From IMG/VR virus record IMGVR_UViG_3300044510_000078: a stretch of 64,000 bases of DNA; one strand, 5' to 3'. The notes beneath the pieces are model-generated. The model did no database searches, was not told the origin of the DNA, and worked only from the letters and a program-made list of their open reading frames with translations. Source of the DNA: a virus. How positions within the stretch are numbered: position 1 is the first letter of the stretch; the number at the start of each line of letters is the position of its first letter. Below are positions 1-22,962 of this stretch, one piece after another. A program made the translations under genes and the position numbers.

Positions 1-935
1 TTATGAGCTTCTTTTTCAGATTCATATTGCTTGGAAGCTTCCTTAATTTGTTCGGCAAGGAATTCTGTTATAGCGGACGCGTTGATTTGTTTTAAAGTCT
101 CGTCGGTAATATCTTGAACTTTAGTGATTTTCATATCTCGTCTGTTTTGATTTACATTAAAATCTTGGGATTGTGAAATATTTTTTTGAGGTAATTGTGT
201 ATTTTGAGAAGAAATTCCCTTCACCTCTGCGGCGGGAGATTCTGTTAGACCTATACCCAAAGGCAGCACTTCTCCGACTGGTTGACGATAAACTTTTTGA
301 CCATTTATCTCTCCAGAGCCTCCAAATGATTTTAAATGTTTAGATATTTCGTCACAATCTCCAAGTAGGGGAACGCAATCCTCCAAGTTCTTAGAGGAAG
401 AGCCTGCGCTTGTGCTTACAATTTTAAAATCATCAAAACCAAGCTCCCAACTCGCGGAAATTGACTGAAAACTCTCATTAGCTGGGTCTGTAGAATCTTC
501 TATTTTCGTCACCACGTCAGGATTTACAATTCTCCATAAAACACCGCCCAAAGTGATATTAAAGGGCTTCTTTGAATCTTTAATATCTTCAGCTTTAAGA
601 GGTAAATCGGAACCAAATTCACTAAAACCGACATTCAAGATAACACCAATAACATTTTTTCTATTATGTTCTATGTTAATTGGTTTATTCACAAAATAGT
701 TTGCTATTGAAAGGGCTGTCTCAGTGTCAATTACGTCTCCATTTTTATTTATACGATTGACTACAAAGGCGTTAAATGCAATTGGCAATAAATCATAATT
801 TTTTGACACATCAACGTCTGGAATAAAATTAGCAACATCAAGGAATGATGCCATAGCTAAGTATTTATCTTTTTCTTCTGAAACCAATGGTCTAAGTAAA
901 GAGCTGAACGAAATTTTAAATCTAAAATCTTTCAT
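1..935 (-). CDS. Putative prohead/maturation protease-scaffold protein (runs off the window, 3' incomplete)
   Basis: Read manually: ATG at 935 opens a frame (ends inspected) that runs off base 1: MKDFRFKISFSS...NRINKNGDVIDTETALSIANYFVNKPINIEHNRKNVIGVI..., with a charged helical end. The NxNGD...KPINxEH pattern and the position in the head cluster fit phage prohead proteases. Absent from the ORF track because no stop lies in the window. Confidence 0.6.
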   Translation of the reverse strand, partial: MKDFRFKISFSSLLRPLVSEEKDKYLAMASFLDVANFIPDVDVSKNYDLLPIAFNAFVVNRINKNGDVIDTETALSIANYFVNKPINIEHNRKNVIGVILNVGFSEFGSDLPLKAEDIKDSKKPFNITLGGVLWRIVNPDVVTKIEDSTDPANESFQSISASWELGFDDFKIVSTSAGSSSKNLEDCVPLLGDCDEISKHLKSFGGSGEINGQKVYRQPVGEVLPLGIGLTESPAAEVKGISSQNTQLPQKNISQSQDFNVNQNRRDMKITKVQDITDETLKQINASAITEFLAEQIKEASKQYESEKEAH

Positions 936-943
936 ATATTATA

Positions 944-1459
944 TTATATTAACGAATCAAGCCTTGCTAAAATTTGCTTTTTTAATTCTTGTTCGTCATC
1001 AAGATAAAGGTTTAGAAAAGTTTTACAACTATTATCTAATTTAAAAGCAACAATATCTCTTTTAGCAGAAGCAAAGTCTTCGTCTAAGATTTGGAGCCTC
1101 ATTTCTGAGAGGGGTAATGAAGTTTTGTTCAGTCTTTTGGCAATACCAGTTAGATTATTTTCTATAGCTTTTAGATAAGAGTTTAGGTATGCCAATGAAT
1201 ACTCTAACAATGGAATAGTAGAATTTACTTCATTTTTCCAAAGCTCTTCCGCACGAATTAAAAGAGATTTTAATTGAGCAAGACTGACCCTTTTATTGTT
1301 TTCAGAATTATGGGATTTAACCTTTGCGTCCAAGCAAGCGACAATTTTAGAAGATAATGATATTGCCGAACATTGACATTTATCTTTTAAAGTAGAACAA
1401 TTCACACACAGGTCAATCTGTGACGCCTTTGTATATTCAAATTCAAAAAGATTGTTCAT
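944..1459 (-). CDS. Hypothetical protein (171 aa)
   Basis: ORF in operon orientation, with a GTGTAA motif 13 nt upstream of ATG. Confidence 0.7.
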   Translation of the reverse strand: MNNLFEFEYTKASQIDLCVNCSTLKDKCQCSAISLSSKIVACLDAKVKSHNSENNKRVSLAQLKSLLIRAEELWKNEVNSTIPLLEYSLAYLNSYLKAIENNLTGIAKRLNKTSLPLSEMRLQILDEDFASAKRDIVAFKLDNSCKTFLNLYLDDEQELKKQILARLDSLI

Positions 1460-1500
1460 GGCTCATTAAATATTACACGCAAATAATATAAAAAATACGA

Positions 1501-4224
1501 CTAATTAATGAAAACGAACTCATTCCCCAACAACAGGGTTTGCGAGTATTTTGTCCAAGCATTTAGTTTATTTTTAAAATCTTTTAAAGGCTCATTTACG
1601 AATGCTGTTCCTAACTTAATTTCTAATTCTGCTGGTAAGCGTTGATAGACGATTTTATATAGATAAATTATTTTTTCCTTATCTGTCTTGAGAGCTTCAA
1701 AATCTTTTGAGCTTGTGATTGCTACGGAACTTTGGATAACCAAATCTCCGTTCATTAAAAACAGCGCTTGTTTAGGAACTATCGTGCTAAAACGTTTTCC
1801 AGTTGGCATTTCTGGGGTTGCCATATCAAAAGTTGTAAAAAGGTCAGGTAAACGGCCCCTATCTATCAAACCATAAACGCTTCTTTTATACACGTCTGGA
1901 CGCATCAAATCTACTGATTGTCCGCCGCCAACGAAGTCTAGCCTTCTACTAACCATCAATAAAGAGTCCCTCATTGATTCAAAATCCAATCTAATCATAT
2001 TCATTTTCCAATACAGGGAATTTTCTTGGTCTTGAATTGCGTATTTTGTATTGTTTTTTGATGATTGTTGATAAGTGCTAGACATTACTATAAGTTTGTG
2101 AACATATTTCGTTGACCAGCCGTGCTTGATAAAGTCATTAGCTAACCAATTTAATAGATTCAAATGTTTAGGCTTTTCAGATTGAGTTCCAAAATCGTCA
2201 GGAGAATTGACAAGTCCCACCCCGAAATGATGTTGCCATAATCTGTTTACATAGACCCTCGAAGTTAATGGATTTTTTGGGTCTGCTATTGATTTTGCCA
2301 ACTCTAATCTACCGCTGCCATTTGTATAAATATTATTTGTCGGAGAAAGGACTTCGAGAAAACGTCTTGGAACAATAGACCCACGAGAATTAGGGTCGCC
2401 CTTTATAAAAACTGGCGAATTTTGCGCCGTCGGCTTATCATAAATGGCCATTGCTCTAGGGGTAGCTGCTGGATGTGATAATTCGAGGGTGACTAATTTA
2501 CCTTTTTCTCTTCTTAAATCATTGTCATATCTCATTGTCTGATTATTGTCAGACAGAAAACGAGCAAAATTTTCTCTTGTAAATTCAAGGGGTCCACTAT
2601 TCTCAAAAATTATTTCATAAAATTTCTTTTCTTCGGAGTCGGAACTTTTTTGATAGCGTTTTTGAGAATCTAAAACCGCAGCTTGATACCCATTGCATAC
2701 TTCTAAAAGAGTATTGGCATTTTTTGTATATCTAAAAATATATGAATGAATTGTTTTTTCATTTTCTTCTATGTATTTTTTGAATTCAACTCTAAAGTCA
2801 TTCGTTATTTTAATAGCTTTAAGATATGGAGAATAAATTGACGCCTCAATTTCTTGTTTTTTCGTTGTCCTCATGGCGTCAGTCCATTTTTTAATCATTC
2901 GAGGATTTAGGGAATTAGTTCTTATAAAATCTTGCTTTCCGTCTTGCTTTACTAAATCTAGCAAATAGTTGCCGTATAACCATTTTGAGGTATTGGTTAT
3001 GAAACTTAAAAATGCCTCATTATATCTTTTGGTGATAAAATCTTCAACTTCTTTTTCTATTTTTGATTTTTGGGCTACATAGTCTGGAAATAGATTTGGG
3101 AATCTGCTTTCTGAAATTATTGGTTTTTCTTCAGGAATTGTGCAACTGTTTAATATGCCATGCAGCGCATAGTAATCTTTAATAGTGATAGCGTCAAATT
3201 TATGGTCGTGGCATCTGGCGCAAACAACAGTTGAGCCAAGAAAACCCTTTGTGATTACATCAATTCTATCATCTATAACATCATTATTGTTGTTGGAATT
3301 TTTTCCCAGAGTCAAGAATCCAAGCGCCGCCAAAGATTTTTTGTCATTTGGTTTATATAAATCGGCAGCAAGTTGTTCTATAACAAATTCATTAAATGGT
3401 TTATCCTCATTAAAAGAAGAAATTACATAATCTCTATAAGTATAAGAATAAGTATATCTTCCTTCGGTGTTTGCTCTAATTGAACCAGAGGTGTCTGCAT
3501 ACCTAGCGACATCTAACCAATGTCTCGCCCATCTTTCTCCATAAAGAGGAGATTTTAGTAGTTCATCAACAAGATTTTCGTAAGCCTTTGGAGATTTGTT
3601 TTTAACAAAAGATTCCACTTCTTCATAAGTCGGAGGAATGCCTAACAAATCAAAATATAATCTTCTAATCAAAACTTCTTTGGGGGCCGATAAAGAGGGT
3701 CGCAGATTCTTCTCTTCTAGTTCTTTTAGTATAAAATTATCAATAGGGTTACTAATCCATCTGGATGACTTTACTTTTGGAATTTGCGCGTCTGGAACCG
3801 GTTGATATGCCCAGTGATTTTTCCTGTCTTCAACGACTGAAAAGATTAAATTCGTGCCGCTTCTTGGGTCTGGAGCGCCATTCTTAATCCATTTCTCAAA
3901 ATCAGCTAAAACATAATCTGGAAGCTTTTCATTTGGAGGCATCTGCAAAGAATTATCCTTATAAGATAAAGCTTTTAAAATTAAAGATTTACTCAAATCA
4001 TTCGGGACTATGGCTGGGCCAGTATCGCCGCCCTTAATCAAACCATCCTTTGTATCTAATAAAAGCCCACCTTTTATTTTTTCAGCAGTTTTGCTGTGGC
4101 AGCGATAGCAATTAGAAGATAAAATTGGTCTAATTTTTTGCTCGAAAAAAGAATAATCTTCTTTCTGAGCGCCGAACAAATTAATACTTAAAAAGATTAA
4201 AAATGTAAATATCCATCTTGCCAT
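1501..4224 (-). CDS. Planctomycete-type cytochrome c (PSCyt1) + DUF1549 + DUF1553 protein
   Basis: N-terminal signal peptide, CxxCH motifs (CYRCH, CARCHDH), NPIDNFI, LIRRLYFDLLGIPPT, GERWARHWLDVARYADT, NPLTSRVYVNRLWQHHFGVGLV. Start moved to MARWIF at 4224, 1 nt after the DUF1501 stop. Confidence 0.9.
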   Translation of the reverse strand: MARWIFTFLIFLSINLFGAQKEDYSFFEQKIRPILSSNCYRCHSKTAEKIKGGLLLDTKDGLIKGGDTGPAIVPNDLSKSLILKALSYKDNSLQMPPNEKLPDYVLADFEKWIKNGAPDPRSGTNLIFSVVEDRKNHWAYQPVPDAQIPKVKSSRWISNPIDNFILKELEEKNLRPSLSAPKEVLIRRLYFDLLGIPPTYEEVESFVKNKSPKAYENLVDELLKSPLYGERWARHWLDVARYADTSGSIRANTEGRYTYSYTYRDYVISSFNEDKPFNEFVIEQLAADLYKPNDKKSLAALGFLTLGKNSNNNNDVIDDRIDVITKGFLGSTVVCARCHDHKFDAITIKDYYALHGILNSCTIPEEKPIISESRFPNLFPDYVAQKSKIEKEVEDFITKRYNEAFLSFITNTSKWLYGNYLLDLVKQDGKQDFIRTNSLNPRMIKKWTDAMRTTKKQEIEASIYSPYLKAIKITNDFRVEFKKYIEENEKTIHSYIFRYTKNANTLLEVCNGYQAAVLDSQKRYQKSSDSEEKKFYEIIFENSGPLEFTRENFARFLSDNNQTMRYDNDLRREKGKLVTLELSHPAATPRAMAIYDKPTAQNSPVFIKGDPNSRGSIVPRRFLEVLSPTNNIYTNGSGRLELAKSIADPKNPLTSRVYVNRLWQHHFGVGLVNSPDDFGTQSEKPKHLNLLNWLANDFIKHGWSTKYVHKLIVMSSTYQQSSKNNTKYAIQDQENSLYWKMNMIRLDFESMRDSLLMVSRRLDFVGGGQSVDLMRPDVYKRSVYGLIDRGRLPDLFTTFDMATPEMPTGKRFSTIVPKQALFLMNGDLVIQSSVAITSSKDFEALKTDKEKIIYLYKIVYQRLPAELEIKLGTAFVNEPLKDFKNKLNAWTKYSQTLLLGNEFVFIN

Positions 4225-4225
4225 A

Positions 4226-5617
4226 TTATGCGATGATGTCTTTGACAACATTGCCGTGAACGTCTGTTAGACGGAATTCGCGGCCATTGTAATTATATAC
4301 AAGTTGAGTATGGTCAAATCCAAGTAGCGCTAATATTGTAGCGTGCAAGTCGTGAACGTGGACTTTATTTTTTACAATTTTAGCTCCAAAATCGTCAGTT
4401 TGTCCATAGACAGTTCCCCCCTTTATTCCTCCACCAATTAAAACAGAGCTAAAAGCCTGACTCCAGTGGCCTCTTCCAAATCCATCTTTCCCACCCTGAC
4501 CATCTCTTTGAGGAGTTCTTCCAAATTCGCCACTCATAACAATAAGAGTGCTATCAAGTAGTCCTTTTTCTTTTAAGTCTGCAAGAAGAGCGGCAATTGG
4601 CTTATCAACCTGATTCGCCGCGCTTCTTAAAGAGCGAGAAAGTCCATCGTGCGTGTCCCATCCACCCGTGAACACTTGAACAAATCTTACGCCTCTTTCT
4701 ACAAGCCTTCTTGCTAGCAGCATTTGCTTGCCTTGAGCCGTGTCTCCAAATTTTTCTCTTGTTTCTTTTGACTCTTTTGAAATATCAAAGGCGTCGGTCG
4801 CTTCAGACTGCATCCTAAATGCGACTTCAAAAGATTCTAGTCTTGCTTCCAAATCGGCCTCTTTTTGTAGGTTTTGGCCATGAATAGTATTTAGTTTTTG
4901 CAGCAAATCTAATTGCTTTCTTTGTTCTTCGATGGAAACATATTGAGATTTAATATTTTCAATCATTTTATCTACAGAATTCAAAGTCGTATTTACCGAA
5001 GTTCCTTGATAAACGCCCGGTAAGAAAGCTGAACCAAAATTTTGCGTGCCTCCAAGCGGAATCCCCCCCGGCCTTAAAGAAACAAAGGCTGGCATATTTT
5101 GATTAATTCCGCCTAATCCATAACAAACCCATGCGCCCAAACTTGGTCTTACGAATCTGGCTGACCCAGTATTCATAATCAATGTTGCTAATTCATGGGC
5201 TGGAATATCGGTGTTCATTGACCTAATAACAACAGCATCATCAATAAATTTACCAATATTTTCAAAAACTTCACTAACTTCAATGCCACTTTTACCCATC
5301 TTATTAAACTTGAATGGAGAACCACAAGCCAAGCCATTCATTCCAGAACCAAGTTGTGAACCGTCAAGTTTTATGAGTTCTGGTTTATTATCCCAAGTAT
5401 CAATATGAGATTGTCCGCCTCCGAAAAAGATATGAATAACCCTCTTGGCTTTGGCAGGAAAATGTGAAGATTTTGGTGAAAGTCCGTCGGCCTGAGCAAG
5501 AAGCGGTGCAAGACCCAACATTCCCATTCCCATACCCATTGTTTGCAAAAATTCCCGGCGAGTTTTTAGAAAGTCTTTTGCAGATAATTCGTTTTGGTTG
5601 CAAAATAATTGTTTCAT
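4226..5617 (-). CDS. DUF1501 family protein with Tat-type signal
   Basis: TRREFL twin-arginine motif, AKRVIHIFFGGGQSHIDTWDNKP, LLARRLVERGVRFVQV, GWDTH, SGEFGRTP, GRGHW, VHDLHATILALLG, RLTDVHG. Start moved to MKQLF at 5617. Confidence 0.92.
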   Translation of the reverse strand: MKQLFCNQNELSAKDFLKTRREFLQTMGMGMGMLGLAPLLAQADGLSPKSSHFPAKAKRVIHIFFGGGQSHIDTWDNKPELIKLDGSQLGSGMNGLACGSPFKFNKMGKSGIEVSEVFENIGKFIDDAVVIRSMNTDIPAHELATLIMNTGSARFVRPSLGAWVCYGLGGINQNMPAFVSLRPGGIPLGGTQNFGSAFLPGVYQGTSVNTTLNSVDKMIENIKSQYVSIEEQRKQLDLLQKLNTIHGQNLQKEADLEARLESFEVAFRMQSEATDAFDISKESKETREKFGDTAQGKQMLLARRLVERGVRFVQVFTGGWDTHDGLSRSLRSAANQVDKPIAALLADLKEKGLLDSTLIVMSGEFGRTPQRDGQGGKDGFGRGHWSQAFSSVLIGGGIKGGTVYGQTDDFGAKIVKNKVHVHDLHATILALLGFDHTQLVYNYNGREFRLTDVHGNVVKDIIA

Positions 5618-5630
5618 ATCTTTAAAGATG

Positions 5631-6092
5631 TTACACTCCATTCAAGAAGACAAGTTCTGTGTCTTCGACGATTGGTTGAGAAATCTCAAATAAGTTATTT
5701 ACTGCATCCACATCTCCAACCGGAGTTTCTCTCATCACAAAATCTGCCCCAATACCTGATGAACCAGACGAACCGCTGGTTCCAGACGTTCCATCTACTC
5801 CACTGGTTCCCGAACTGCCACTTGAACCAGACGAACCGCTAGAACCTGATGAGCCACTTGAACCAGACGAACCGCTGGTTCCGTTTATGCCACTTGTCCC
5901 ATTTACTCCAGATGAACCACTAGACCCAGAGGTTGAATCTGACCCATTAATTTTATTTGCAAGCTCAAAAATAGTTACTTTTTTATTTTTTTGGCCAGAA
6001 TTGGCAGAAACATCAACAATTGGTATCAAATCTGTATCCGCCATCTCAGACGCAGAGATACTTAGAGATTTGCTTATCTTTAGACCTTGCAT
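5631..6092 (-). CDS. Ser/Gly-repeat virion-type protein, possibly C-terminally truncated
   Basis: GSSGSSG/GTSG repeats followed by RETPVGDVDAVNNLF...VFLNGV and a stop. Confidence 0.65.
   Translation of the reverse strand: MQGLKISKSLSISASEMADTDLIPIVDVSANSGQKNKKVTIFELANKINGSDSTSGSSGSSGVNGTSGINGTSGSSGSSGSSGSSGSSGSSGSSGTSGVDGTSGTSGSSGSSGIGADFVMRETPVGDVDAVNNLFEISQPIVEDTELVFLNGV
5755..5945 (-). repeat. Coding Gly-Ser-Ser/Gly-Thr-Ser tandem repeat (9-bp period)
   Basis: Repeated gaaccagacgaaccgct/gagccactt units. Confidence 0.85.
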
Positions 6093-6111
6093 AATATGTA
6101 AATTCTAATAA

Positions 6112-7458
6112 TTAGTTACACCCAGAAACATCAGAAGGACAATCCGAAGACCAAATCATTTTGAATGTCATTGTCAAGTTGTCAAATAGGTCAACATAAG
6201 GATATTGCCCAGTAATCGAGCCAGTATTATATGTATATGCTCCCGTATTAATAGAAGGCAAAAGCTCCCTTGCTTGTGTGGCAAACAGCATATCAACCAA
6301 AGGATAATAGCTGTTAAGTCCTTGGTTGTAAGCCAAAACTAAAGATTTGAGTCTCTGAGGAAGCCCTTCTGCATCTACAAAGTTATTTTGAACACTGTTC
6401 CAACTAACTTCTCTTACCAGAGAGCGAGTTCTTCCAGTAACAACAAAACTTAAAGGGGTTATTGTAATATTTTCAGCTTCATGTTCAAAAACTTCTGTAT
6501 TCGTTTCTTGCCGAAAATCGTCCTGATTTGGAATTGGAACAAAATCTTTGCGAATATTAAGAATGGACTGTTCTACAGCAGAATTATCCTGAGAAAATAA
6601 ATCGTAATGATAAGTGCAGATACCACTTCCAAATGGCTTGGCTCCAACCCCGTTATAGTATGGCTTAAATTGGGATGTAAGAATTTTCCCGCCCGAAAAG
6701 CTATTCACTAAAAATTGATAGCCGTCGGTTGATAAATAACAAACAAGCTTATCCTTTGTTGTAGATGGTTCCATCGGAGCCCCATATGGTTCTGGAATAA
6801 AACTTTCTCCATCCTCTTCTTCAGCGCCACCAACGAACATATCTTCTCCAACAATTAATTTAAGACCATGATGGACTTGAGAATATCTTCCAGACAACTT
6901 TCCCCATAAACGACAGGTAGAAGGGTCTTGATTTACTTGACTTGCATCTATAACGTTTGCGAAGTGTCTTATTCCAGTTGGAACAGTAATACCCAAACGA
7001 TAAGATATAACAGAATAGTCTCCAGATGGGATTATAAAAGATTTCAATATCCTAGAAAAAGCATATTTACTATTCGTTCCAGAAGTATCTGGGGAAACCA
7101 TAAGCTCTTCAATATCTAAAGGCTCAGTTAAATAGCTTACATCTGGAACTCTCCAACCTCTGAAAAGCCTTAACCCGCTTGTTAACTCATTGTATCCACA
7201 AGCGCCTCCAACATAATTATTTAAATAAGAATATTCTGGATATGGATATTCAAGTCCAGTTGTGTATAAAGTATTTTGTCCAGTTCCACTTCCAATGGAC
7301 AAAAACTTAAAAGTATCAGCAAATCCAGTGCTATAAATGTAACTAAGTCCGGTTGAAGTTATGAAATTATCAAAAAAATCCGTAGTTGAGACTAATTCAT
7401 CTTTAGAATTAAATACATCAATTTTAAATTGCCCGCGAAGTTTTATGTCTAGTGCCAT
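6112..7458 (-). CDS. Putative virion structural protein (448 aa), paralog of 7470-10130
   Basis: Shares GxFKxDxF...TTDxFxNFITxTGL N-terminus, KYAFSR, ISYxL and IWSxxC...GC C-terminus with its neighbour. Confidence 0.7.
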   Translation of the reverse strand: MALDIKLRGQFKIDVFNSKDELVSTTDFFDNFITSTGLSYIYSTGFADTFKFLSIGSGTGQNTLYTTGLEYPYPEYSYLNNYVGGACGYNELTSGLRLFRGWRVPDVSYLTEPLDIEELMVSPDTSGTNSKYAFSRILKSFIIPSGDYSVISYRLGITVPTGIRHFANVIDASQVNQDPSTCRLWGKLSGRYSQVHHGLKLIVGEDMFVGGAEEEDGESFIPEPYGAPMEPSTTKDKLVCYLSTDGYQFLVNSFSGGKILTSQFKPYYNGVGAKPFGSGICTYHYDLFSQDNSAVEQSILNIRKDFVPIPNQDDFRQETNTEVFEHEAENITITPLSFVVTGRTRSLVREVSWNSVQNNFVDAEGLPQRLKSLVLAYNQGLNSYYPLVDMLFATQARELLPSINTGAYTYNTGSITGQYPYVDLFDNLTMTFKMIWSSDCPSDVSGCN

Positions 7459-7469
7459 AGCTCATTTTA

Positions 7470-10130
7470 TTAAGGGTCTATACAACCCGCTACTCCTCCA
7501 CAATTTGCGGACCAAATTAAATCCATATACATTTCCAATGTGTTATCAAAACTTAAAGCTGGATACGTTCCTCCGAAATTGACCGGATAATTTTCTCCAA
7601 TTTGAGGATAACCATGATTAGGTAACAAACGAAATGCCTCTGTATGTAGTAATACTCCAGTAGGAGCAAGGAAGTCGGTCATTTCAACAACGCCCGTCAA
7701 ATAAGAATGTGCGTGCCAATTATATCCACCGGCTTGTGCTCCAGACATATATGTTAAATATAGAGGTAATCCAGTTCCATAAGAACCAGAAAAGAAAACT
7801 CCAAATTTTTCTCCAGAAGAAGTATTAAATCCAAGACCAGATAATCTTTCCGTTACATTAGCGAACAAACTATTTGCTCTAACGACATTGCAAGAGGTTT
7901 CGTTTAAACCACTAATATATGTAACATTTAATAATCCAGTGTTTACTGTAAATGGATAATATGTAGTTGGAAATCCACTCGTAATAGTAACTCCTTCTAT
8001 AAGGCCATTAAATCCAGTTAAAGGATAAATATATCCAGAAATTTTTCCGCTAACAAAAATGTCAGCAGAGATTTCGTTAATAAAATTATCTTCATTTAAG
8101 TTTTCTGAAGCGTCTTTTGTTCCTGTATATTTTTTATTTGTTAGAAAATACCCATCATAAATTATTGGAGAACTATTTCCAGTAAAAGCAAGCGGAGAAT
8201 CTACAGTATTTAAAAACCAATCAAGACCAGTTGGTAACAAAGTTCCAGACGCTATTGGAGAAAATATAATGTTATTGACCATCTGCCTGCTTGTTGTAAA
8301 ATACAAAGCCGGGTCCGAAATAACTCCAATACCAGTTTTTAAATACTTTAGACCGCTTACACAAAATCCTAATTGTATTTTATCCCTAGTTGTTGGCCAA
8401 TATAAAGCTCCAGACGGAGATGGAGGAGTATTGGCTGTCAAAGAATGGTCAACTATACCATATTCTATTCCGCTAAATTGTTTGTGTCCATAAACTGCGC
8501 CCCAACCATTTGAATATCCAGTAAAAGCCGTTCCAGTAGAACCATATACACCGCTATTTAGATTAACGCCACTACTAAAAGCCCCATAAGCAGGATTTCC
8601 AGAAAAGAGAATATGGTCAAACGCGCCAGAATAAGGCCCATTTACAAATCTGGCCGCAAACTCTCCAGAACCAACGGGAGAAGACGTAAAATATCCATCT
8701 ATGATTCCTGTTCCACGCTCAGTTAAATAAACGGCATTTACATTTCTATAATGCTGCATCAAAGCCCGACCAGAATTGTCATAAAGAAGACAATCTATCA
8801 TTGGCCAATAAGAGTTTCCGTTTTTAAAAGCAAAAACGAAAGAGCCAAATCGAGAATTTTTGCCTAAATTATTTACTGGAGGGAAAAATAATTTTCTCGT
8901 TAAGGTTTTCTTTCTTCCCGTAGTAAGAGAACCATAATTAAAAGGTAAATTAATTGTTAGAGACGACATGACTCTTCTATTGCCCAAATCTATAACTGAA
9001 TCATCTATACCTGTTGCTCCCGGCGTAGCGATAGAAATTGGCGTTGCCCTAGTTAGGTAATCATAAACGGTATTGTTATAATTAATTCCAGCGACAGACT
9101 GGGCATAATTAGACGTTTTAGGAACTGCAACGCCATTTAGTCTTATATCAACTTTTAATGCATTTGGGTCTGCATCATCAGGAATATCAGATGGTGTTAA
9201 ATTAAAGTTATTATAAAATTCAGCTTCAGAGAGTCCGGCGCTTTGTCTTAGATTATGTCCAACGGACAGTTGATAAAGTCCATCAGCCGCGTATGCTTTA
9301 GTAATATTATTTTGAAGTCCCCCAGTTTTAGAAACATCAAATTGACTGTTATCTGGAGAAAAATACATCTTAATCAACGACAAATCTCTTTTACCGGGCT
9401 CCATTCCGTCTCCGTATTTAGGAACAAACGTGGCCCCATCAATATCTACGCATCTTAATCCGTGATAAACTTGTCTATAATATCCAGATAAATTTTCCCA
9501 TTCTTTAACAATCGAAAGGTCATTTTCAACATTTGCGTTTCCAGTAATAAACGTTCCAGAAGTAAAATGAGTTATGCCAGTGTTTAGAAGTTTAATTTGT
9601 AGCTGATAAGAAATAATCGAACGAGTGTTAGCAGGAATAGTCACCGATTTAACGACTCTGCTAAAAGCGTATTTCCCACTTGGGTCTGTGCCAGAGCTAG
9701 GAGATACCATAAATTCATTGATATTTACTGCCGCTGTTGTTAACGCCCCACCACTAGGGATATTCCATCCTCTATACATGATTGGGCCGCTACGAGAAAC
9801 AATCGTTCCACAAGCCCCATCTACGCTGCCATGATATGAATTTTTATTTAAATAGCGTCCATCTTGGACAGATGGAGAGCCGTTTGTTTGAATTGTTGTA
9901 ATTGGAGAAACTAACCCAGTTGTATTTAATGTATTAGCTGAAGAGGAACTCCCAACCGAAAGAAAGCGAAAACAATCAGCAAATCCATAAGTTAATGGAT
10001 ACAAAAGTCCCGTTTGCGTGATAAAATTGGAAAAATAATCAGTTGTTTCCAACAACTTCCCATCCTTGTCGAAAATATCTACCTTAAAAGCTCCTTCGAG
10101 CCCATATTCCAATTGCGTTCGCATATCCAT
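7470..10130 (-). CDS. Putative virion structural protein (886 aa) with Ser/Gly-rich insertions
   Basis: Paralogous termini to 6112-7458; GTGTAA 9 nt upstream of ATG. Confidence 0.7.
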   Translation of the reverse strand: MDMRTQLEYGLEGAFKVDIFDKDGKLLETTDYFSNFITQTGLLYPLTYGFADCFRFLSVGSSSSANTLNTTGLVSPITTIQTNGSPSVQDGRYLNKNSYHGSVDGACGTIVSRSGPIMYRGWNIPSGGALTTAAVNINEFMVSPSSGTDPSGKYAFSRVVKSVTIPANTRSIISYQLQIKLLNTGITHFTSGTFITGNANVENDLSIVKEWENLSGYYRQVYHGLRCVDIDGATFVPKYGDGMEPGKRDLSLIKMYFSPDNSQFDVSKTGGLQNNITKAYAADGLYQLSVGHNLRQSAGLSEAEFYNNFNLTPSDIPDDADPNALKVDIRLNGVAVPKTSNYAQSVAGINYNNTVYDYLTRATPISIATPGATGIDDSVIDLGNRRVMSSLTINLPFNYGSLTTGRKKTLTRKLFFPPVNNLGKNSRFGSFVFAFKNGNSYWPMIDCLLYDNSGRALMQHYRNVNAVYLTERGTGIIDGYFTSSPVGSGEFAARFVNGPYSGAFDHILFSGNPAYGAFSSGVNLNSGVYGSTGTAFTGYSNGWGAVYGHKQFSGIEYGIVDHSLTANTPPSPSGALYWPTTRDKIQLGFCVSGLKYLKTGIGVISDPALYFTTSRQMVNNIIFSPIASGTLLPTGLDWFLNTVDSPLAFTGNSSPIIYDGYFLTNKKYTGTKDASENLNEDNFINEISADIFVSGKISGYIYPLTGFNGLIEGVTITSGFPTTYYPFTVNTGLLNVTYISGLNETSCNVVRANSLFANVTERLSGLGFNTSSGEKFGVFFSGSYGTGLPLYLTYMSGAQAGGYNWHAHSYLTGVVEMTDFLAPTGVLLHTEAFRLLPNHGYPQIGENYPVNFGGTYPALSFDNTLEMYMDLIWSANCGGVAGCIDP

Positions 10131-10185
10131 ATATTTTATTTACACCTAATTTTATTACAGTTTCTTTTGGGTTTTTAAGAGATAA

Positions 10186-10803
10186 TTAACCCTGATAAGA
10201 GCCAGTAAATAAAAATAAATTTAAGTCCACTAAATCTTCTCCAGTAATCGGCCTATTAAATGACATAAATCCAGATACATACGTTCCCGTAAATAAAAAT
10301 AAATCAACATCACAATTATCTCCCAAGACTCCTAATATATTGCCAGATGGAAACGTAACTGAAAAATTTCCAGTCTCCCTTAGCTCTTCTAACCAATTAC
10401 CACTAAAAGCAAAATTGACCTCATTTATGTCAGAGATAACCCCCGACCATTCTCCACTTATAATAACACTTAATCCAGATACAACATCATAAGGGGGCTC
10501 AACAATATCGCCACTTAGAATAAAATTATATATATTCGCATCTCCATCAGAAGGGAAAAAATCTCCAGTCAAATTAAAAGAAAAAATTCCACTATCTTTG
10601 GGGTTCCCAAAAAAAGAGCCGCTTTTAAAGACCAAATCTAATTTTCCAGAATCCCTTGGTCCGCCATATAAAATACCACTAAGAGAAAAATTTGAAGAAG
10701 TTACTTCACTTCCAAACGTATATGGATGGAATTTATCTACGCCAATTTCTCTTGAAGAAATATCAACAGATATTTGTTGGAGCTGGTTAAAGGGAGCGCC
10801 CAT
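10186..10803 (-). CDS. Hypothetical SG/TG-rich virion-type protein (205 aa)
   Basis: Low-complexity FSG/LSG/FTG pattern; directly downstream of the portal. Confidence 0.65.
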   Translation of the reverse strand: MGAPFNQLQQISVDISSREIGVDKFHPYTFGSEVTSSNFSLSGILYGGPRDSGKLDLVFKSGSFFGNPKDSGIFSFNLTGDFFPSDGDANIYNFILSGDIVEPPYDVVSGLSVIISGEWSGVISDINEVNFAFSGNWLEELRETGNFSVTFPSGNILGVLGDNCDVDLFLFTGTYVSGFMSFNRPITGEDLVDLNLFLFTGSYQG

Positions 10804-10812
10804 ACCTTCATT

Positions 10813-12669
10813 TTAAATTTTACTGTTGAACAAAATCGTCGCCAAGTAAAAATCTAAATTATGAGTCGCAGCAATTTCGTTTATCTCCGATAAGCGAGCT
10901 TTGTTGTTGTCGGTCGGACTTTCGCAATATTTTTCAACATTATCGGCCCACTTTTCCGGAGACTCATTTGCCATGATTGTATGCGTAACCATTTCAATAA
11001 TTTTGGCTTCTGCTTCGCCTATCTTTTTTAGTTTTGATTTTTTCTTAAAAGTTTTTGTTACCTCGTCTTCTAATCGTTGTCCTAAAATAAGATTTTCTCT
11101 AATTTTTTTGACGCTAAAATTTACTTCAGAAGCTCCGATTGGAGAGACTTTATTGGTTGACTTTGGAATACCCTTTGAGCCGGATGGACGACCAGAACTA
11201 TCACCGGGCTTTTTTTCTTCTTTTTGGGAGCCGCCAATTAAAGGAGTATATAATCCTTCGTTTTTTAGTTTTTTAAACTTGTCTTGAGACTCTAACGACT
11301 CTTCATGGTCTGGAAGTCTATTTGTTTCAATAGCTTTAATCGTTTCTTCGGAAGTTAGAATTCCTAATTCAGCTAGACGTGTATAAATTTTAGCATAAAT
11401 TCCGTCATCTTTTAAATCTATTTCTTCAAGATATGGAACTGGATAATTTTTGAATCCCATAGTTTTAGAAATCTTTTTAATTTCGGGAGCGAGAAAATTA
11501 TTTACAAAAGCTGACCTTGCTTGACGTAATCGAGATACGAATATTTCAACTTTTGCCGTTTGATTTGCAAATTTTTCGCCACCAGCGAAAACGTTATTTA
11601 ACCCAACATTTATATCGTTGTTAATTACTTCGTATTTTTTGGCGTCAAGCAGCTCTCCTATCTTTGGGATAATAAACTCAGCCTTTGTTGTATAATCTGC
11701 AATTAATACCCTTCCAACTGATTGATTTTCAAATAATTTTTGTAAAGCGGCAACGTTTTTAGGATTTACTCCTCCTTTTTCTGGCTCAGTCCCGCAAGTT
11801 ACTAATAATATGACTTGTTGCATTGTCCTCGCAAGAGCCATATCTATTTTTTTCATTTCATATTTTGCATTTAAGTCCTCAAGAACTGGAAAACCCATTG
11901 GCACTGCGAAAGGCTCATAATCCTGTTTTTTGTAAAATACAGAAACGACATTGTCAGCGGTCAAAGGAATCAATACTGTCAAATTTATATTTTTTTGTAT
12001 TGCTTGCTTGACATCTTTAGGAAGAGAAGATAAAAACTCTTCGTCTTCTTCTGTTTGCGGTTTTCTTAATCTTGCTAATTCATAATCAGACAAAATCTTA
12101 GAATAAATTCCAGAACTAAAATTAATAGTGCCAGTTAGAGCTATATCTGCTGGGTTTAAGATGACGTATTTTATCGGCAAAACTTTTTGCGATTCTTCAG
12201 CGCCGTAAACTTGAGTAATTCTGTTTACGTCTTCTGTTTTTAGAGTAGCTTCAAATCTATAAACAAAAACATTACCAGAACGATAATATTCTCTGTAAAA
12301 CCTATCTTGCAAGTCCCAACTGTTAATTTTTTTAAAAAAAGCATGGAAAAAACTACGAGATTTTTCATTTCCACCTTTAAAAAATATATCCGTAGTAGAT
12401 AATTCGGTCATCAAATCAATCACATTTCTGAAAACTGAAAAATTATAATAGGCTTTTTGACACAATACAACCGCATCTCTGACTGTTATTGTTGACGAGC
12501 CCTGTTTGGAGCTTTCTTTAAAAGGAACAAGACCATCCTGAATATTGCTAAATCTATCGGTTCTTTCTATGACACCGGCGACATTTCTCCTTGTCTTGTC
12601 AGATGCCTCAGTCATCAAGACTAAAGATTCAATATTTTTTTCTTTTTTGGCTGCTTTGTTTTTTTTCAT
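10813..12669 (-). CDS. Portal protein (putative)
   Basis: 618 aa, near TerL. AYYNFSVFRNVIDLM, FYREYYRSGNVFVY and a charged C-terminal tail with GRP are typical of large-phage portals. Confidence 0.75.
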   Translation of the reverse strand: MKKNKAAKKEKNIESLVLMTEASDKTRRNVAGVIERTDRFSNIQDGLVPFKESSKQGSSTITVRDAVVLCQKAYYNFSVFRNVIDLMTELSTTDIFFKGGNEKSRSFFHAFFKKINSWDLQDRFYREYYRSGNVFVYRFEATLKTEDVNRITQVYGAEESQKVLPIKYVILNPADIALTGTINFSSGIYSKILSDYELARLRKPQTEEDEEFLSSLPKDVKQAIQKNINLTVLIPLTADNVVSVFYKKQDYEPFAVPMGFPVLEDLNAKYEMKKIDMALARTMQQVILLVTCGTEPEKGGVNPKNVAALQKLFENQSVGRVLIADYTTKAEFIIPKIGELLDAKKYEVINNDINVGLNNVFAGGEKFANQTAKVEIFVSRLRQARSAFVNNFLAPEIKKISKTMGFKNYPVPYLEEIDLKDDGIYAKIYTRLAELGILTSEETIKAIETNRLPDHEESLESQDKFKKLKNEGLYTPLIGGSQKEEKKPGDSSGRPSGSKGIPKSTNKVSPIGASEVNFSVKKIRENLILGQRLEDEVTKTFKKKSKLKKIGEAEAKIIEMVTHTIMANESPEKWADNVEKYCESPTDNNKARLSEINEIAATHNLDFYLATILFNSKI

Positions 12670-12679
12670 ACGACTACCA

Positions 12680-14518
<1,839 letters not shown>

Positions 14519-14552
14519 TTCCCTTTTTCCAATATATAGGTATTACACATTT

Positions 14553-16403
14553 TTAAATCATCGTGGGAACAAAGGTTTCCTGTTCTTCAACTTGCGCGTT
14601 TTGCATATCAAAATAAATTTTGGTGGCCCAGTTTCCTAGTAAAAGCGCCGTATAATTGTCTTTTCTTGCCCTGTTTTCAGTAGTTTCTCTATTTAAATGA
14701 GCTGGTAAATCAAAAGTCTGCATACCTCTAGCATTAGTTCCGACTTCAATTAAAGCGCACTCTGATTTAGTTAAATCTATCATAGAATCCAAATGCTCAA
14801 TAAAATCCCCAACTGTATTTACATCATCAATAACGCCTTTAATCAAATCGAAATTAATTCCAGAAGTGATAGCTTTATCGAAGGCCATCGCGCTGCCAGC
14901 GCTTTTCGATGCAAACCAAATTCTCTTAAAGTCAATATTTCCCTGTAAATGTTCGTTAGACTTTCTTATAAATTCATTACTACCAAATACTTGCTTAAAT
15001 ACAATCCTTTTGTGTTCCAGATTGTGCTGGCGTTTGGCTGTTTTTAATTCTTTGGAATAATCTGGTTCGTCTAGGCTACTCTCAAATGTCATCCATTTTA
15101 AATTTAATTTATTTTTAACAAATAATTCATGCTCATTTGCTGCGTCAATAAAGTTATAACCAGCGTTATCAATGACAATAAAAACAATATTAAAATGTGT
15201 CAACAAATAATAAAAATATCTGATATGTTCTTTTAAATCTTTACCATGTTCTCCGTAAGCGTGGACTAGAGTTGATTGTTTATTTTCTTCGTCAAGTTCT
15301 AAGAGGGCCATACCAAAGTCGTCAGAAGTTGGGCTGTTGGAGAAGCTTGGGTCTATCGCCAAAACATATTTTTTGTCAGGAGTTCCCCTTACTAAAGTAT
15401 GTGGGCTTTGAGAATGTGGGACAGTGCAATTAAACATTTTTTTCGCAGCAAAATATCCTTCACTTCCGTCTGTAAATCTAGCACAATATTCTCTAAGGAA
15501 AACCGCATTAGAAGTGCCTCCAGTTTCAGCTTCTTTAATAATACTTTGATTTATCATGTGGGCGGGTAGCGCCTCCCAAGATAATTGGGAAATAAAATAT
15601 TTTGCATTATCTTCTTTTTCTTTTGGTTTATTTATTTTGCTTATCCATTCACAATAGGTTTCGTAAAGATTTTCAAAAGTGTATGACGCAGAAGAGAGGG
15701 CAACAAATCTTGTCGTATTTTCAAAAATGATTCTGTCTTTTTCATTTAACAATCTTTCTTTTATTAAAGAGTCTTCTATATTTCTAATTCTAATTCTTTC
15801 GTCCATATCTTGTGGAGCAGTTAAGAATGGAATAAGAACCGTATCTACAATTTCTTTACTCATTAATAAATATTCGTCAATTAACAAAACATTCGCTCGA
15901 AATCCACGAATTTTCTCTCCGTTCAATGGAATGGCAACAATAGACCCTTCGTTGATTTTTAATTCATGCAAATCATTTCGTTTAATTTTCGCTCCTAAGA
16001 CTTGAAAAAATAAAGCCGCGTCCCTTCTTTCAGATATTTCTTCAATTTTGTTAAAAATAAAACGCGAAGTTCTAAATGTTGGCCCAGCTATAAGAATTTT
16101 TGAACCGGGATAGAATATACATTGCAAAATACAAAAAACAGCAGCTATAAACGTTTTTCCACAGCCACGACCCCAAATACACATACTATAGTTTCTATTT
16201 AACATCCCACGTAAAGTAACCTCTTGGAAAGGGGCGATTTTAATACCAGTTAATAGCTCTACAGTAAAAGTTAAATTATGACGTAAAAATTTAATCAAAG
16301 TTAGCCTAGCTTCGTTATCGCTAAGTTCTCCAACTAAAGTATTTAAATAGACTTCATTTAAATCTTCTAATTCTGTTTCGTATTTTTGAGGACACGTCCA
16401 CAT
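14553..16403 (-). CDS. terL: Terminase large subunit
   Basis: Walker A GRGCGKT, Walker B LLIDE, motif III ALSSA, RNase-H-like LAIDP and C-terminal RKDNYTAL. Start moved to MWTCPQ at 16403, abutting the upstream stop. Confidence 0.9.
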   Translation of the reverse strand: MWTCPQKYETELEDLNEVYLNTLVGELSDNEARLTLIKFLRHNLTFTVELLTGIKIAPFQEVTLRGMLNRNYSMCIWGRGCGKTFIAAVFCILQCIFYPGSKILIAGPTFRTSRFIFNKIEEISERRDAALFFQVLGAKIKRNDLHELKINEGSIVAIPLNGEKIRGFRANVLLIDEYLLMSKEIVDTVLIPFLTAPQDMDERIRIRNIEDSLIKERLLNEKDRIIFENTTRFVALSSASYTFENLYETYCEWISKINKPKEKEDNAKYFISQLSWEALPAHMINQSIIKEAETGGTSNAVFLREYCARFTDGSEGYFAAKKMFNCTVPHSQSPHTLVRGTPDKKYVLAIDPSFSNSPTSDDFGMALLELDEENKQSTLVHAYGEHGKDLKEHIRYFYYLLTHFNIVFIVIDNAGYNFIDAANEHELFVKNKLNLKWMTFESSLDEPDYSKELKTAKRQHNLEHKRIVFKQVFGSNEFIRKSNEHLQGNIDFKRIWFASKSAGSAMAFDKAITSGINFDLIKGVIDDVNTVGDFIEHLDSMIDLTKSECALIEVGTNARGMQTFDLPAHLNRETTENRARKDNYTALLLGNWATKIYFDMQNAQVEEQETFVPTMI

Positions 16404-16405
16404 AC

Positions 16406-17350
16406 TTATAATAAATTTGTATCGTATAATAGCTGTAAATCGGCTTTTTTCCATAAGCCCTTGCTTGTTAATACAATTTCAGCTATTCTTGCGGCCTCGG
16501 TTCTACCATCAACGAATAAAAATTGTATATCTTTAAATTGATAAATTAATTCTCTCATATTTCGTAGGACAAATTCGGGAGAGGCTTTTACATTAGAATA
16601 TGCTGGTCTTAGGTATTTGAACCTTGCTACATTATTAAAGTCACTTTCTACGAGAATAAGCATTCCCGCGCCAACTTCTTCTGCTTTTTTTAATTCTTTT
16701 TTAAATCTTTCGAGCCCGCCGCTCATTGTCCCATAAAAATCTGCTAATGATTTTCTTTCTATAAAACTATTTTCACAAAGCTCTTTATTATCCAAAGTAT
16801 AATCTCCAAATTTAAGCGCGGCTTTAATGATTGGTAAATTATTGAAGCAGAGTGGGGCTTGTTCTCTTGTGTCTATATAAATAGAAGAATTATTTATTGC
16901 TGGACTTTTAGGTAATTCTATTTTTTTATATTTTGCGGGAACACCAATCTGTTCGCATAAATCATAATAGCTCCCAAATAGTTCGTCGAAATAATTAATA
17001 GATGGAATAAGTAATGACCGTAATTCTACTTGACAAGGGGCGAACTTTAATTGTTTTTTTTGTATTCTTCTTTCCAGTAAATTTTTACAATATGTTTTTG
17101 CAATTTCTTTATCTTGCTTTCTAAGCCAGTAGCGCAAGTTATTTTTATTGTTAAAATCATCGTTAAAATATTGGTCTTTAGTTTTGAAAGCGATAATTTT
17201 TTTATCATGTAAATCATATCTCGGAAAGTAAGTTTGATAGTAAGAAACAATCCTATGTTTGTGGACTCTTATATGTTTGTGTAAAGATTCTTCATTTGTA
17301 AATACCTCTTTACAAATTTGACAAACTAGAGTTGTGCATACATTATCCAT
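16406..17350 (-). CDS. C2H2 zinc-finger + ERCC4/XPF-type nuclease
   Basis: CQICKE...HKHIRVH; IYIDTREQ, LKFGDY, IERKSLAD nuclease motifs. Confidence 0.8.
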   Translation of the reverse strand: MDNVCTTLVCQICKEVFTNEESLHKHIRVHKHRIVSYYQTYFPRYDLHDKKIIAFKTKDQYFNDDFNNKNNLRYWLRKQDKEIAKTYCKNLLERRIQKKQLKFAPCQVELRSLLIPSINYFDELFGSYYDLCEQIGVPAKYKKIELPKSPAINNSSIYIDTREQAPLCFNNLPIIKAALKFGDYTLDNKELCENSFIERKSLADFYGTMSGGLERFKKELKKAEEVGAGMLILVESDFNNVARFKYLRPAYSNVKASPEFVLRNMRELIYQFKDIQFLFVDGRTEAARIAEIVLTSKGLWKKADLQLLYDTNLL

Positions 17351-18446
17351 TTAGAGCTTCATTTCTTGAAAGACCCATAATTTTTCCTTTAAGCTCGTCC
17401 ATAGTCATTAGTCTTTCCACTTCTTCTTTAATTGATACTTTTTGTAATTGGGCAAGTTTTATCATTTTGTTTCTTGTTTCTTCTAATTTCCAAAGCTGCA
17501 CAAGATTTAAAATACTTGCGTTATCTTTGAGCTGTTTACTTAGTCTATCACTTCTTTTTTCTTTTAGGCTGTTTGTTAAGTCTTGCTGTCTTTTAACGCA
17601 CGCATTATATTCTACTTGAGCTTTTCCGATTGCTTCCACAAGAGACATCGCAATTCTTACATTATCTTCTCCAGACTGTGAGGATTCGTCCAATAATACT
17701 TGCAATCGCTCTGACCTTCTTTGAATTGTCGAGGCCATAACAATTTCATTAGCTAAAAGAATATATTGGTCAACCTCTTCTTGAGTTAAATCAGATTTAT
17801 CATAAGTATAACGAATAAAAGTAGATTCAAATAATTTTCTATCAGTTTCGGTTTCAAAACTATTAATCTGATGATTAAATCTAAATGTGTGTAAATATCC
17901 AATCAATGATTCTAAATCTTTTTTTTGTTTTGCGGTAATTTTATCTTTGTCAATACCCTCGTGGATGTATCTATTGACCCTAGCTAATGCGGTGACAATT
18001 GTTTTTGGAGGATTCCAATTTTCTTCCGGAACTTCATTGGTGTCTCCATAAACTATTTTTTTATCTAATGTTTTTACATATTCATTAACCGTTCTTGTCT
18101 CTTGGTTTAGATTTGTTAGAGATGGATTATTAAATAATACCTTTGCCATATCTAAAGAAGTCATAGATGACGCATTCTTTGAGACGTATTCCATTTGCTC
18201 TAAAGTTAAGGTAATTTTATCTTTCGTTAATCGTTCTTGAGAAGGTCTTGGCTTCAAGCTGTGTGTGGCTAAAAAAGCTTTGACAGCCCTGCCCTCGACT
18301 GAACGACCGTCTATTTCTTTCCCAAAAACCGCCACCGTTAAATCTTTTAGCGCTGGAGGAATTTCAGACGAATTCCATAAATTAAGTAATTTAAGTTTTT
18401 GTTCGTCAGTTAATTGTATGTCGCTTTCCATATTAAATGATGTCAA
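17343..18446 (-). CDS. Hypothetical helical protein in the packaging operon (367 aa)
   Basis: Overlapping start/stop with both neighbours; coiled-coil C-terminus. Confidence 0.75.
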   Translation of the reverse strand: MTSFNMESDIQLTDEQKLKLLNLWNSSEIPPALKDLTVAVFGKEIDGRSVEGRAVKAFLATHSLKPRPSQERLTKDKITLTLEQMEYVSKNASSMTSLDMAKVLFNNPSLTNLNQETRTVNEYVKTLDKKIVYGDTNEVPEENWNPPKTIVTALARVNRYIHEGIDKDKITAKQKKDLESLIGYLHTFRFNHQINSFETETDRKLFESTFIRYTYDKSDLTQEEVDQYILLANEIVMASTIQRRSERLQVLLDESSQSGEDNVRIAMSLVEAIGKAQVEYNACVKRQQDLTNSLKEKRSDRLSKQLKDNASILNLVQLWKLEETRNKMIKLAQLQKVSIKEEVERLMTMDELKGKIMGLSRNEALNG

Positions 18447-19113: not shown

Positions 19114-19546
19114 TTATATCCTTTGAATCTCTTGTTGTCCCGGCTTCTTTTAGAAATTCAGCCCTGAAAGTTTTTTCATCATATTCAAATTTTTGCGGTT
19201 CTGTTGGATAAGCTTGAGACGTAGGGCAAGGAGATGCCATAATTTGTTTTAGAGTCTCTTTTATCGGTGGCGAAGAATTTATATCTGTTTCAAATTCTAG
19301 GCCGGTGAGTTCTGTTGTGAATTGCTCCACGCTTTCTCCATCGTCTGCATCAATTTCTTCGTATTGTTTTCCCTTATTATTAAAGGCTAAAATTTTTGGC
19401 GCGAATGTTTTTAATTTTTTTAGCTTTTCTTCTGGTTTGGGAGGCGAAGAGGACAATGAAGCTAAATTTGTGCCGCACTCTGGACAAAATTTACAGGATA
19501 CACTTGGAGCTTTTTTACCGCAATTGTGACAATAATTAACTGGCAT
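19103..19546 (-). CDS. Zinc-ribbon protein
   Basis: N-terminal YCHNCG...FCPECGT; acidic C-terminus. Confidence 0.75.
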   Translation of the reverse strand: MPVNYCHNCGKKAPSVSCKFCPECGTNLASLSSSPPKPEEKLKKLKTFAPKILAFNNKGKQYEEIDADDGESVEQFTTELTGLEFETDINSSPPIKETLKQIMASPCPTSQAYPTEPQKFEYDEKTFRAEFLKEAGTTRDSKDINGD

Positions 19547-21791: not shown

Positions 21792-21793
21792 TT

Positions 21794-22952: not shown

Positions 22953-22962
22953 ATCTTAATTA

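Follow-up and report, generated by a model that had tools for sequence, protein, structure and literature searches.

Two genes for predicted exported proteins in a phage head block

The DNA analysed here is a 64,000-nucleotide stretch of the IMG/VR virus record IMGVR_UViG_3300044510_000078 (the 64-kb window), which is a portion of a large tailed phage. Two adjacent genes on its minus strand encode a DUF1501 protein and a partner with PSCyt and PSD domains and CxxCH haem motifs. The pair is intact, embedded among phage genes, ameliorated in codon usage, under strong purifying selection and placed in phage-only clades, and both products carry export signals. In the cells of Planctomycetes, Verrucomicrobia and Lentisphaerae, DUF1501 together with PSCyt1/PSCyt2/PSD1 makes up a “conserved genetic module” (Kamneva et al. 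2012, PMC3542564; He et al. 2017, PMC5615132). Its domains were first defined in Rhodopirellula baltica, and the module is known yet uncharacterised (PMC3542564, PMC5615132, PMC2754498). An earlier reading of the window made from its letters alone (the sequence-only reading) had given this family background correctly (PMC3542564, PMC5615132). The two genes are:

4226-5617, minus strand: DUF1501 gene, 463 amino acids plus stop (Pfam DUF1501; Tat signal; phage clade-A signature GRGHW)
1501-4224, minus strand: PSCyt1/PSCyt2(DUF1549)/PSD1(DUF1553) gene, 907 amino acids plus stop (Pfam)

The sequence-only reading had described an intact two-gene operon with a 1-nt gap, a twin-arginine translocation (Tat) signal on the first product, and a general secretory (Sec) type signal and two CxxCH motifs on the second; all of this was borne out. 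The ATG of the partner gene (4224) lies one base past the DUF1501 stop codon (TAA, 4228-4226) on the same strand. The open reading frame (ORF) 4226-5641 (minus strand) matches the Pfam DUF1501 profile over its full length (PF07394, 1-390/390; E-value 3.5e-134, 448 bits against a cut-off of 27), and its start is most likely ATG 5617, because the public gene call and the homologue in the closest relative both begin there. On motif inspection, the Tat motif T-R-R-E-F-L occupies residues 19-24 and is followed by a hydrophobic stretch and AQA; R21, F23 and L24 of this region are at least 90% conserved among 51 DUF1501 homologues.

The partner gave Pfam matches to PSCyt1 (PF07635, 1.3e-14), PSCyt2/DUF1549 (2.3e-74, 250 bits) and PSD1/DUF1553 (3.7e-75, 253 bits). 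Its N-terminus, MARWIFTFLIFLSINLFGA and then QKED, resembles a Sec signal, and its CxxCH motifs lie at residue 39 (CYRCH) and residue 335 (CARCH). Across 50 homologues, C39, C42, H43, M95, P96 and P97 never vary. Of the second motif (CARCHDH), C335, R337, C338, H339, D340 and H341 are invariant too.

The pair is an established part of the phage genome

Continuity across the locus was followed in Logan contigs from three lake-water runs (2018 and 2025), among which the source sample may be included; single contigs of the three runs cover window positions 1-8000 with 0 differences. The closest relative, IMG/VR contig IMGVR_UViG_3300020193_000059 (L001), is collinear with window positions 1-15980 at 75-78% nucleotide identity, the pair included. 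The L001 proteins are 92% (DUF1501) and 78% (partner) identical to those of the window, and only a collagen-like ORF directly upstream of the DUF1501 gene (5631-6092) is missing there; this ORF is variable cargo. A 47-nt tandem duplication (L001 12960-13060) splits the L001 PSCyt gene into two frames. Both halves of the gene stay conserved, so that the probable cause is an assembly artefact and not decay.

In three more distant relatives (L004, L062 and L065) the pair is found at the same site in the head block, and all three hold, in the same place, homologues (45-55% identical) of the window ORF 3-935. The portals of L062 and L065 are 44-58% identical to that of the window; the gene order of the pair is inverted in L065, and in L004 the pair adjoins 6.5 kb of cargo encoding glycosyl-, sulfo- and methyltransferases. 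The site is therefore a cargo hot-spot, in which the pair has been resident for a long time. Just upstream of the pair, positions 3469-9961 of L004 encode a glycosyltransferase, a capsule-synthesis-like enzyme, two sulfotransferases and two methyltransferases.

The pair had been called AT-rich like its phage neighbours, and both GC and third-position GC (GC3) do match those of the neighbouring genes: GC is 0.35 and 0.405 against 0.31-0.43, and GC3 is 0.29-0.30 against 0.23-0.30, compared with a GC3 of 0.58-0.83 in cellular homologues. Relative synonymous codon usage is correlated with that of phage neighbours (r = 0.87-0.88) and not with that of a cellular pair (r = -0.23); the comparison of codon usage that the sequence-only reading had proposed therefore assigns the genes to the phage and not to their cellular homologues. 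Against L001, the ratio of nonsynonymous to synonymous substitution (dN/dS) is around 0.02 for DUF1501, the most conserved gene of the region, 0.026 for the large terminase subunit (TerL) and around 0.09 for the partner, similar to structural genes; these are rough values, dS being saturated. The continuous contigs and the synteny in independent relatives uphold the earlier view of a host-derived, exported module that has become fixed in a phage, and not of a chimera.

Low-depth contigs in three lake runs join ~5944-5970 to ~1560-1580 via 34 other letters, which would represent either a distant cassette-less relative or chance. A cassette-less variant was considered, but the join is probably spurious; the matched parts are only 21-27 nt long and AT-rich, and the 34-mer is absent from IMG/VR.

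Phage-only clades and the origin of the pair

In a tree of 104 DUF1501 sequences the window protein falls in a 26-row clade (SH-aLRT 91) nested among Verrucomicrobiota (Limisphaerales/Pedosphaera and Chthoniobacterales). In the partner tree the corresponding 26-row phage clade, which has a support of 100, is separated from all cellular sequences. This phage clade is referred to as clade A. All 11 of the members examined (context looked up or syntenic) are on phage-like contigs, up to 249 kb long, with neighbours that include YopX, DHFR, ThyA, ClpP, HNH, rIIA/rIIB and structural genes, and DUF1501 is paired with PSCyt in all clade-A loci. The DUF1501 protein of the window is also present on a public 164-kb contig, and its partner is found on contigs as long as 198 kb. 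In some of the sister phages the pair is far from structural genes, and it lies among early-type genes.

The closest cells are Limisphaerales, with 54-63% identity for DUF1501 and ~42-45% for the partner; no cellular homologue above 63% identity was found. The phylogenies suggested by the sequence-only reading thus place both proteins in phage-only clades, with no near-identical host locus. The order DUF1501 then PSCyt is common to the window pair and to the nearest Limisphaerales/Chthoniobacter loci, and the simplest reading of the sequences is one old capture of the pair which then spread among phages.

In IMG/VR there are 39 DUF1501 loci on 38 contigs, from several lineages. Those that form clade B resemble the window protein in coming from large AT-rich uncultured aquatic phages and in carrying a Tat signal; they differ from it in that they are 38-53% identical to it, keep the GRDH motif with Asp383 and in many cases have no PSCyt partner. 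They look like separate acquisitions. A separate DUF1501/PSCyt pair, 41% identical, is present in L003 and, together with at least one other phage lineage that keeps the cellular motif, indicates that capture occurred more than once. Two sister phages have further peculiarities. L063 (13458-15318) carries a second, very divergent DUF1501 gene (34% identical) without a partner, beside a metallophosphatase and with an APS-kinase-like gene and a pyrophosphatase upstream. In L066 (6994-11846) the PSCyt partner is without the N-terminal cytochrome (PSCyt1) domain and adjoins an alginate-lyase-like gene and a sugar epimerase/dehydratase.

Among 50,697 GenBank phage records, which cover cultured and deposited phages only, there was no DNA match to window positions 1-12000 and no tblastn match to DUF1501. 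No paper linking DUF1501, DUF1549, DUF1553 or PSCyt to phages was found in the literature search; the sole match combining DUF1501 with a phage was a weak CDD annotation of a 61-aa ORF in a Pseudomonas phage. The earlier remark that no description of such a module in a phage had been seen stands in this sense, but the pair is not a one-off, being common in uncultivated viral contigs.

The pair had also been said to predict the phylum of the host. Its nearest cellular relatives are Verrucomicrobiota, and this phylum is tentatively proposed, at phylum level only. A BLAST search of window positions 5700-24500 against 301 genomes of the Limisphaerales-type order returned collagen-repeat matches and hits of 26-34 nt (E ~1e-3), none of them spacer-grade. 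Three Limisphaerales/Pedosphaera-type genomes of 5.7-6.4 Mb (G001-G003, those behind loci L009, L017 and L011) each contain 49-63 DUF1501 matches above the Pfam cut-off.

A family-conserved aspartate is replaced in the phage clade

In clade A the GRDH motif of the family is replaced by GR[S/G/A]H, and the window protein reads GRGHW where cellular proteins read GRDHN. Of 78 non-phage sequences, drawn from several phyla, 71 have Asp at position 383; none of the 25 clade-A sequences does, and all 25 have Ser, Gly or Ala there (Gly in the window). Along with this change, Asn385 has given way mostly to Trp, with His in many clade-A clusters, Arg373 has become Gly and one Gly has been inserted. Residue 383 should line the active site, judging by its distance from the GEFGR strand, the part that is aligned with GDHGR of sulfatases. 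The polar family-invariant residues D76, K78, H141, T150, G151, D321, H323, E364, R367, R382, H384 and D423 are all kept. The clade-A signature was seen in 66 of the best 120 protein clusters (90% identity), and so in at least 66 clusters; the IMG/VR loci L073, L074 and L103 have the related variants GRGHQ and GRAHQ.

Predicted structures of the two proteins

No structure or activity for the DUF1501/PSCyt-PSD family was found in searches of solved-structure sequences and literature, and neither protein gave a significant match to solved-structure sequences. The DUF1501 profile gave only marginal matches to solved sulfatase and LtaS structures, around GEFGR. The AlphaFold2 (AF2) model of DUF1501 has a pLDDT (predicted local distance difference test) of 71 and, compared with solved structures using VIA, matches NPP/ENPP (Z 16.7), PafA (Z 16.1) and sulfatases (Z 15.3); it models as a core of the alkaline-phosphatase superfamily, the top structural classes being effectively tied and the assignment stopping short of a sub-class. 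The likeness to NPP and PafA-type alkaline phosphatases (Z 16.1-16.7) extends over ~220-245 aligned residues with a root-mean-square deviation (rmsd) of 3.1-4.3 Å. On the other side, identity is 11-16%, sulfatases fall within ~1.5 Z, and the D-H metal pair of the NPP/PafA set appears to read E364-F365 (GEFGR) here, with Phe in place of His.

A formylglycine motif, C/S-x-[PA]-x-R, is present nowhere in the DUF1501 protein, which is therefore not a classical (type I, S1) sulfatase; in the model it appears to have only the superfamily fold in common with these enzymes. T136, P139, H141, T150 and G151 are conserved, as are D321, H323, H422 and H425, and the stretch T136-x-x-P139-x-H141...T150-G151 recalls, by analogy, the Thr-nucleophile motif of NPP enzymes. 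A PADLOC search with DUF1501 gave only sub-threshold similarity to DpdI.

The AF2 model of the partner has a pLDDT of 85. Residues 23-120 superimpose on the dihaem cytochrome FoxE (Z 9.3, rmsd 2.8 Å, 93 residues, 25% identity), and the N-terminal domain models as monohaem c-type cytochrome-like, with predicted haem attachment. The second CxxCH motif sits in a large, mostly helical body. When the whole model was searched, this remainder (~790 residues, 130-907) had no solved match, which is not proof of a new fold; a Foldseek search with the whole model returned no match at E <= 0.001, and a wide VIA search found the cytochrome domain only, the other rows (Z ~6-7) being generic helical hairpins.

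Surrounding head genes

The pair lies in a head block with the order TerL, portal-like gene, fibre-like genes, DUF1501/PSCyt pair, head genes. Its annotated neighbours are:

14553-16454, minus strand: large terminase subunit, TerL (Pfam Terminase_6N, 3.2e-06; PHROG 2, 7.6e-22)
10813-12669, minus strand: portal-like protein, 618 amino acids (high-scoring atlas feature “Portal protein family”; structure TM 0.6-0.74 to Portal_Mu clusters)
5631-6092, minus strand: small collagen-like (Gly-X-Y) ORF directly upstream of DUF1501 (Pfam Collagen, 7.4e-09; PHROG tail-fibre families)
3-935, minus strand: 5' part of a conserved head-block gene of ~470 amino acids, downstream of the pair, with its 3' end beyond the window

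The TerL protein is at most 27% identical to that of any GenBank phage, and the window therefore belongs to a lineage without cultured relatives. The gene neighbourhood described by the sequence-only reading is sound as regards the head block, with its TerL and portal-like genes. The label of prohead protease that had been given to ORF 3-935 is a weak lead only; the atlas relates this ORF to Peptidase_S77 with a score that is high yet under the trust level of the atlas, and searches of Pfam and PHROG gave no match. Its product may be a protease or a scaffold. In L001 the genes downstream of the pair are counterparts of ORF 944-1459 and ORF 3-935; next come a cement-like protein and a protein of 374 amino acids that could be guessed to be the capsid protein. 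PHROGs and Pfam returned almost nothing for the downstream head genes, and an NCBIfam search with seven proteins assigned none of them to a family.

A promoter-like GTGTAA element

The sequence-only reading had noted GTGTAA ahead of the pair as ahead of the structural genes. This was confirmed, and the motif is enriched near gene starts. The copies of most relevance are:

5631-5636, minus strand: promoter-like GTGTAA element, 13 nt before the DUF1501 ATG (5617), overlapping the stop codon of the collagen-like ORF
42986-42991, 43258-43263, 50972-50977 and 51556-51561, minus strand: promoter-like GTGTAA copies with TTGACA

In L001, GTGTAATATAAGAT is found 8 nt ahead of the DUF1501 ATG. The window contains 32 copies of GTGTAA against 22.5 +/- 4.5 expected; of the 23 minus-strand copies, 10 precede an ORF start or a tRNA 5' end by 9-24 nt, against an expectation of 0.41 (binomial P ~3e-12). 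The promoter-like arrangement TTGACA-N16-17-GTGTAA(G/T)AT is present ahead of three tRNA genes (Asp, Lys and Ser) and at 51556-51561. GTGTAA appears to be a genuine signal and forms the core of a promoter-like element. The copy ahead of tRNA-Met at 47383 is without TTGACA, and those ahead of late genes (1473, 10140, 14543 and 24501) are without a -35 box. In two late genes the ATG begins 9 nt after GTGTAA, which suggests leaderless mRNAs.

A possible role in the host periplasm

With slightly better than an even chance, in our judgement, the pair is an old, phage-adapted, exported auxiliary enzyme module from a verrucomicrobial-type host, which acts in the periplasm of the infected cell. The pair would be transcribed during infection from a phage promoter of the GTGTAA type and/or with the surrounding head operon. 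Folded DUF1501 would be exported by the Tat system of the host, and the host Sec and haem-maturation systems would export the partner and load it with haem. DUF1501 may be a metallo-esterase of the alkaline-phosphatase superfamily, probably with a Thr nucleophile as in NPP/PafA, rather than a formylglycine sulfatase, and together with the cytochrome-bearing partner it could process a phospho- or sulfo-ester substrate in the periplasm. As host-like genomes hold 49-63 DUF1501 paralogues, presumably under conditional control, the phage would thereby supply one specialised activity independent of host regulation. The best guess is that the phage benefits from nutrients (P, S or C) released for its replication where lake water is poor in them.

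A phage retains only what pays off within one infection. From the phage-only clade and its terminase-like dN/dS it can therefore be argued that the pair performs a discrete and valuable periplasmic reaction. Auxiliary genes by which phages acquire nutrients are known, among them pstS and phoA in cyanophages and PhoH-like genes in aquatic phages. The window pair resembles these in being host-derived, exported or envelope-related and selected in lytic aquatic phages, and the window also has a PhoH-like gene:

22221-22952: PhoH-like gene

It differs from genes of the pstS/phoA type, whose substrate is known to be phosphate, in that a cytochrome partner is co-inherited. Compared with the cellular module, the two Pfam architectures, the gene order, the Tat signal on DUF1501, the signal peptide on the partner and both CxxCH motifs are the same. 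The phage pair is distinguished from it by being phage-encoded and in a phage-only clade, at most 63% (DUF1501) and ~45% (PSCyt) identical to cellular copies; by its AT-rich codon usage and the replacement of Asp383 by Ser/Gly/Ala and of Asn385 mostly by Trp; and by its single copy, as opposed to 49-63 DUF1501 paralogues per host-like genome. The points of interest here are the phage-only clade, the altered active-site residue and a handle on an orphan family; host-derived auxiliary genes as such are known.

Several points weigh against an exported nutrient-releasing enzyme. Simple ester hydrolysis does not account for a cytochrome partner, and the pair is among late head genes here, which is poor timing for nutrient scavenging. 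The phage clade is without the family-conserved Asp383, so that its activity may be changed, or it may have no catalytic role. The DUF1501 model is of moderate quality and its Z scores do not separate phosphoesterase from sulfatase. Finally, amino-acid bias driven by AT content could exaggerate the phage clades in both trees, although discrete shared changes, at residue 383 and elsewhere, back these clades despite that bias. As to timing, sister phages keep the pair among early-type genes, and the head-block position therefore probably reflects tolerance of cargo, not function. The “late-expressed” label of the sequence-only reading, which came from position alone, is not supported; no RNA run is listed as containing the stretch.

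It is conceivable, though less likely than not, that the phage-only clade is a neofunctionalised enzyme system in which the active site of DUF1501 was rebuilt after capture from a verrucomicrobial host and then frozen, with its haem partner, under very strong selection, giving large aquatic phages a periplasmic activity that belongs to no cellular paralogue. If this is true, a single minimal conserved pair may be the most tractable entry to the orphan chemistry of DUF1501/PSCyt.

Envelope remodelling or superinfection exclusion is an unlikely alternative, yet the strongest of the rivals. Here the exported pair would remove or oxidise a phosphate or sulfate ester decoration on a periplasmic or surface glycan or on a lipid head group, with the result that a receptor is lost or that progeny escape from debris. 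The export signals of both proteins agree with this, as does the position of the pair in the window lineage beside fibre-like and collagen-like genes; the cargo site of L004 also contains glycosyltransferases, two sulfotransferases and methyltransferases, an alginate lyase and sugar epimerase adjoin the pair in L066, and placement among late genes suits a role at the end of the cycle. However, in other sister phages the genes around the pair are of early type and include none for glycans, and the cellular paralogues are predicted to be periplasmic enzymes acting on imported substrates, not envelope builders (He 2017, PMC5615132).

Less probable again is a re-purposed, non-catalytic module, in which, following loss of Asp383, the pair would be a binding, decoy or regulatory complex, for instance one that titrates a periplasmic partner or signal of the host. 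The clade-wide replacement of Asp383 and Asn385, R373G and the inserted Gly speak for it, and conservation is very strong nonetheless. Yet all other family-invariant polar residues are kept, as in an active enzyme of shifted specificity, and the variants GRGHQ and GRAHQ of L073, L074 and L103 suggest tuning rather than decay.

The location of the pair inside the head block, between portal-proximal and other head genes, would suit proteins packaged in the virion, or attached to its head or fibres, that act on the envelope of the next host at entry. We consider this very improbable. Every phage copy retains the Tat and Sec signals, which would take the proteins away from the cytoplasm, the site of tailed-phage virion assembly; haem of the c type is attached in the periplasm, and sister phages hold the pair far from structural genes. 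The suggestion in the sequence-only reading that the proteins might be packaged is thus unlikely, because of the conserved signals. An assembly chimera, or a recent passenger insert of host DNA without a phage role, can be virtually dismissed: the gene families are typical of cells and no DUF1501 match exists in the 50,697 GenBank phage records, but contigs of three runs span both junctions, the same site is used in the collinear relative (75-78% nucleotide identity) and in more distant ones, codon usage is phage-like, dN/dS is 0.02-0.09 and cellular homologues are at most 63% identical.

DUF1501/PSCyt-PSD modules are among the largest orphan gene families of Planctomycetes and Verrucomicrobia, and the phage pair offers an entry point to them as a compact, single-copy version to express, assay and crystallise. 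It is also a tentative marker of host phylum for diverse large uncultured lake phages without cultured relatives and, as an exported redox/hydrolase pair, a candidate addition to the auxiliary genes of freshwater phages.

Other features of the window

Positions 1-24,500 have a GC of ~0.33 and dense genes, mostly on the minus strand, that encode TerL, collagen-like fibre proteins, the portal-like protein, a sigma-70-region-2 protein and PhoH. Overlapping the start of the terminase gene is a gene (16406-17350, minus strand) whose product has an N-terminal C2H2 zinc finger and an ERCC4-type nuclease domain. Near ~24,500 the composition changes abruptly from that of this structural/late block (GC ~0.33) to that of a block of small genes and tRNAs (~0.45). 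Small genes are numerous in this second block (25,000-64,000), which also encodes T4-type RNA ligases and carries at least 20 tRNA genes. An alternative genetic code was considered for 25-64 kb on account of the short ORFs there and was rejected; stop recoding gave no coherent picture, and the region holds small genes and tRNAs instead. Two further tRNA matches in Rfam, at 48299-48398 and 44529-44587 (minus strand), were not called by ARAGORN; one is 100 nt long, with a possible intron or long insert, and the other is truncated (model positions 7-64).

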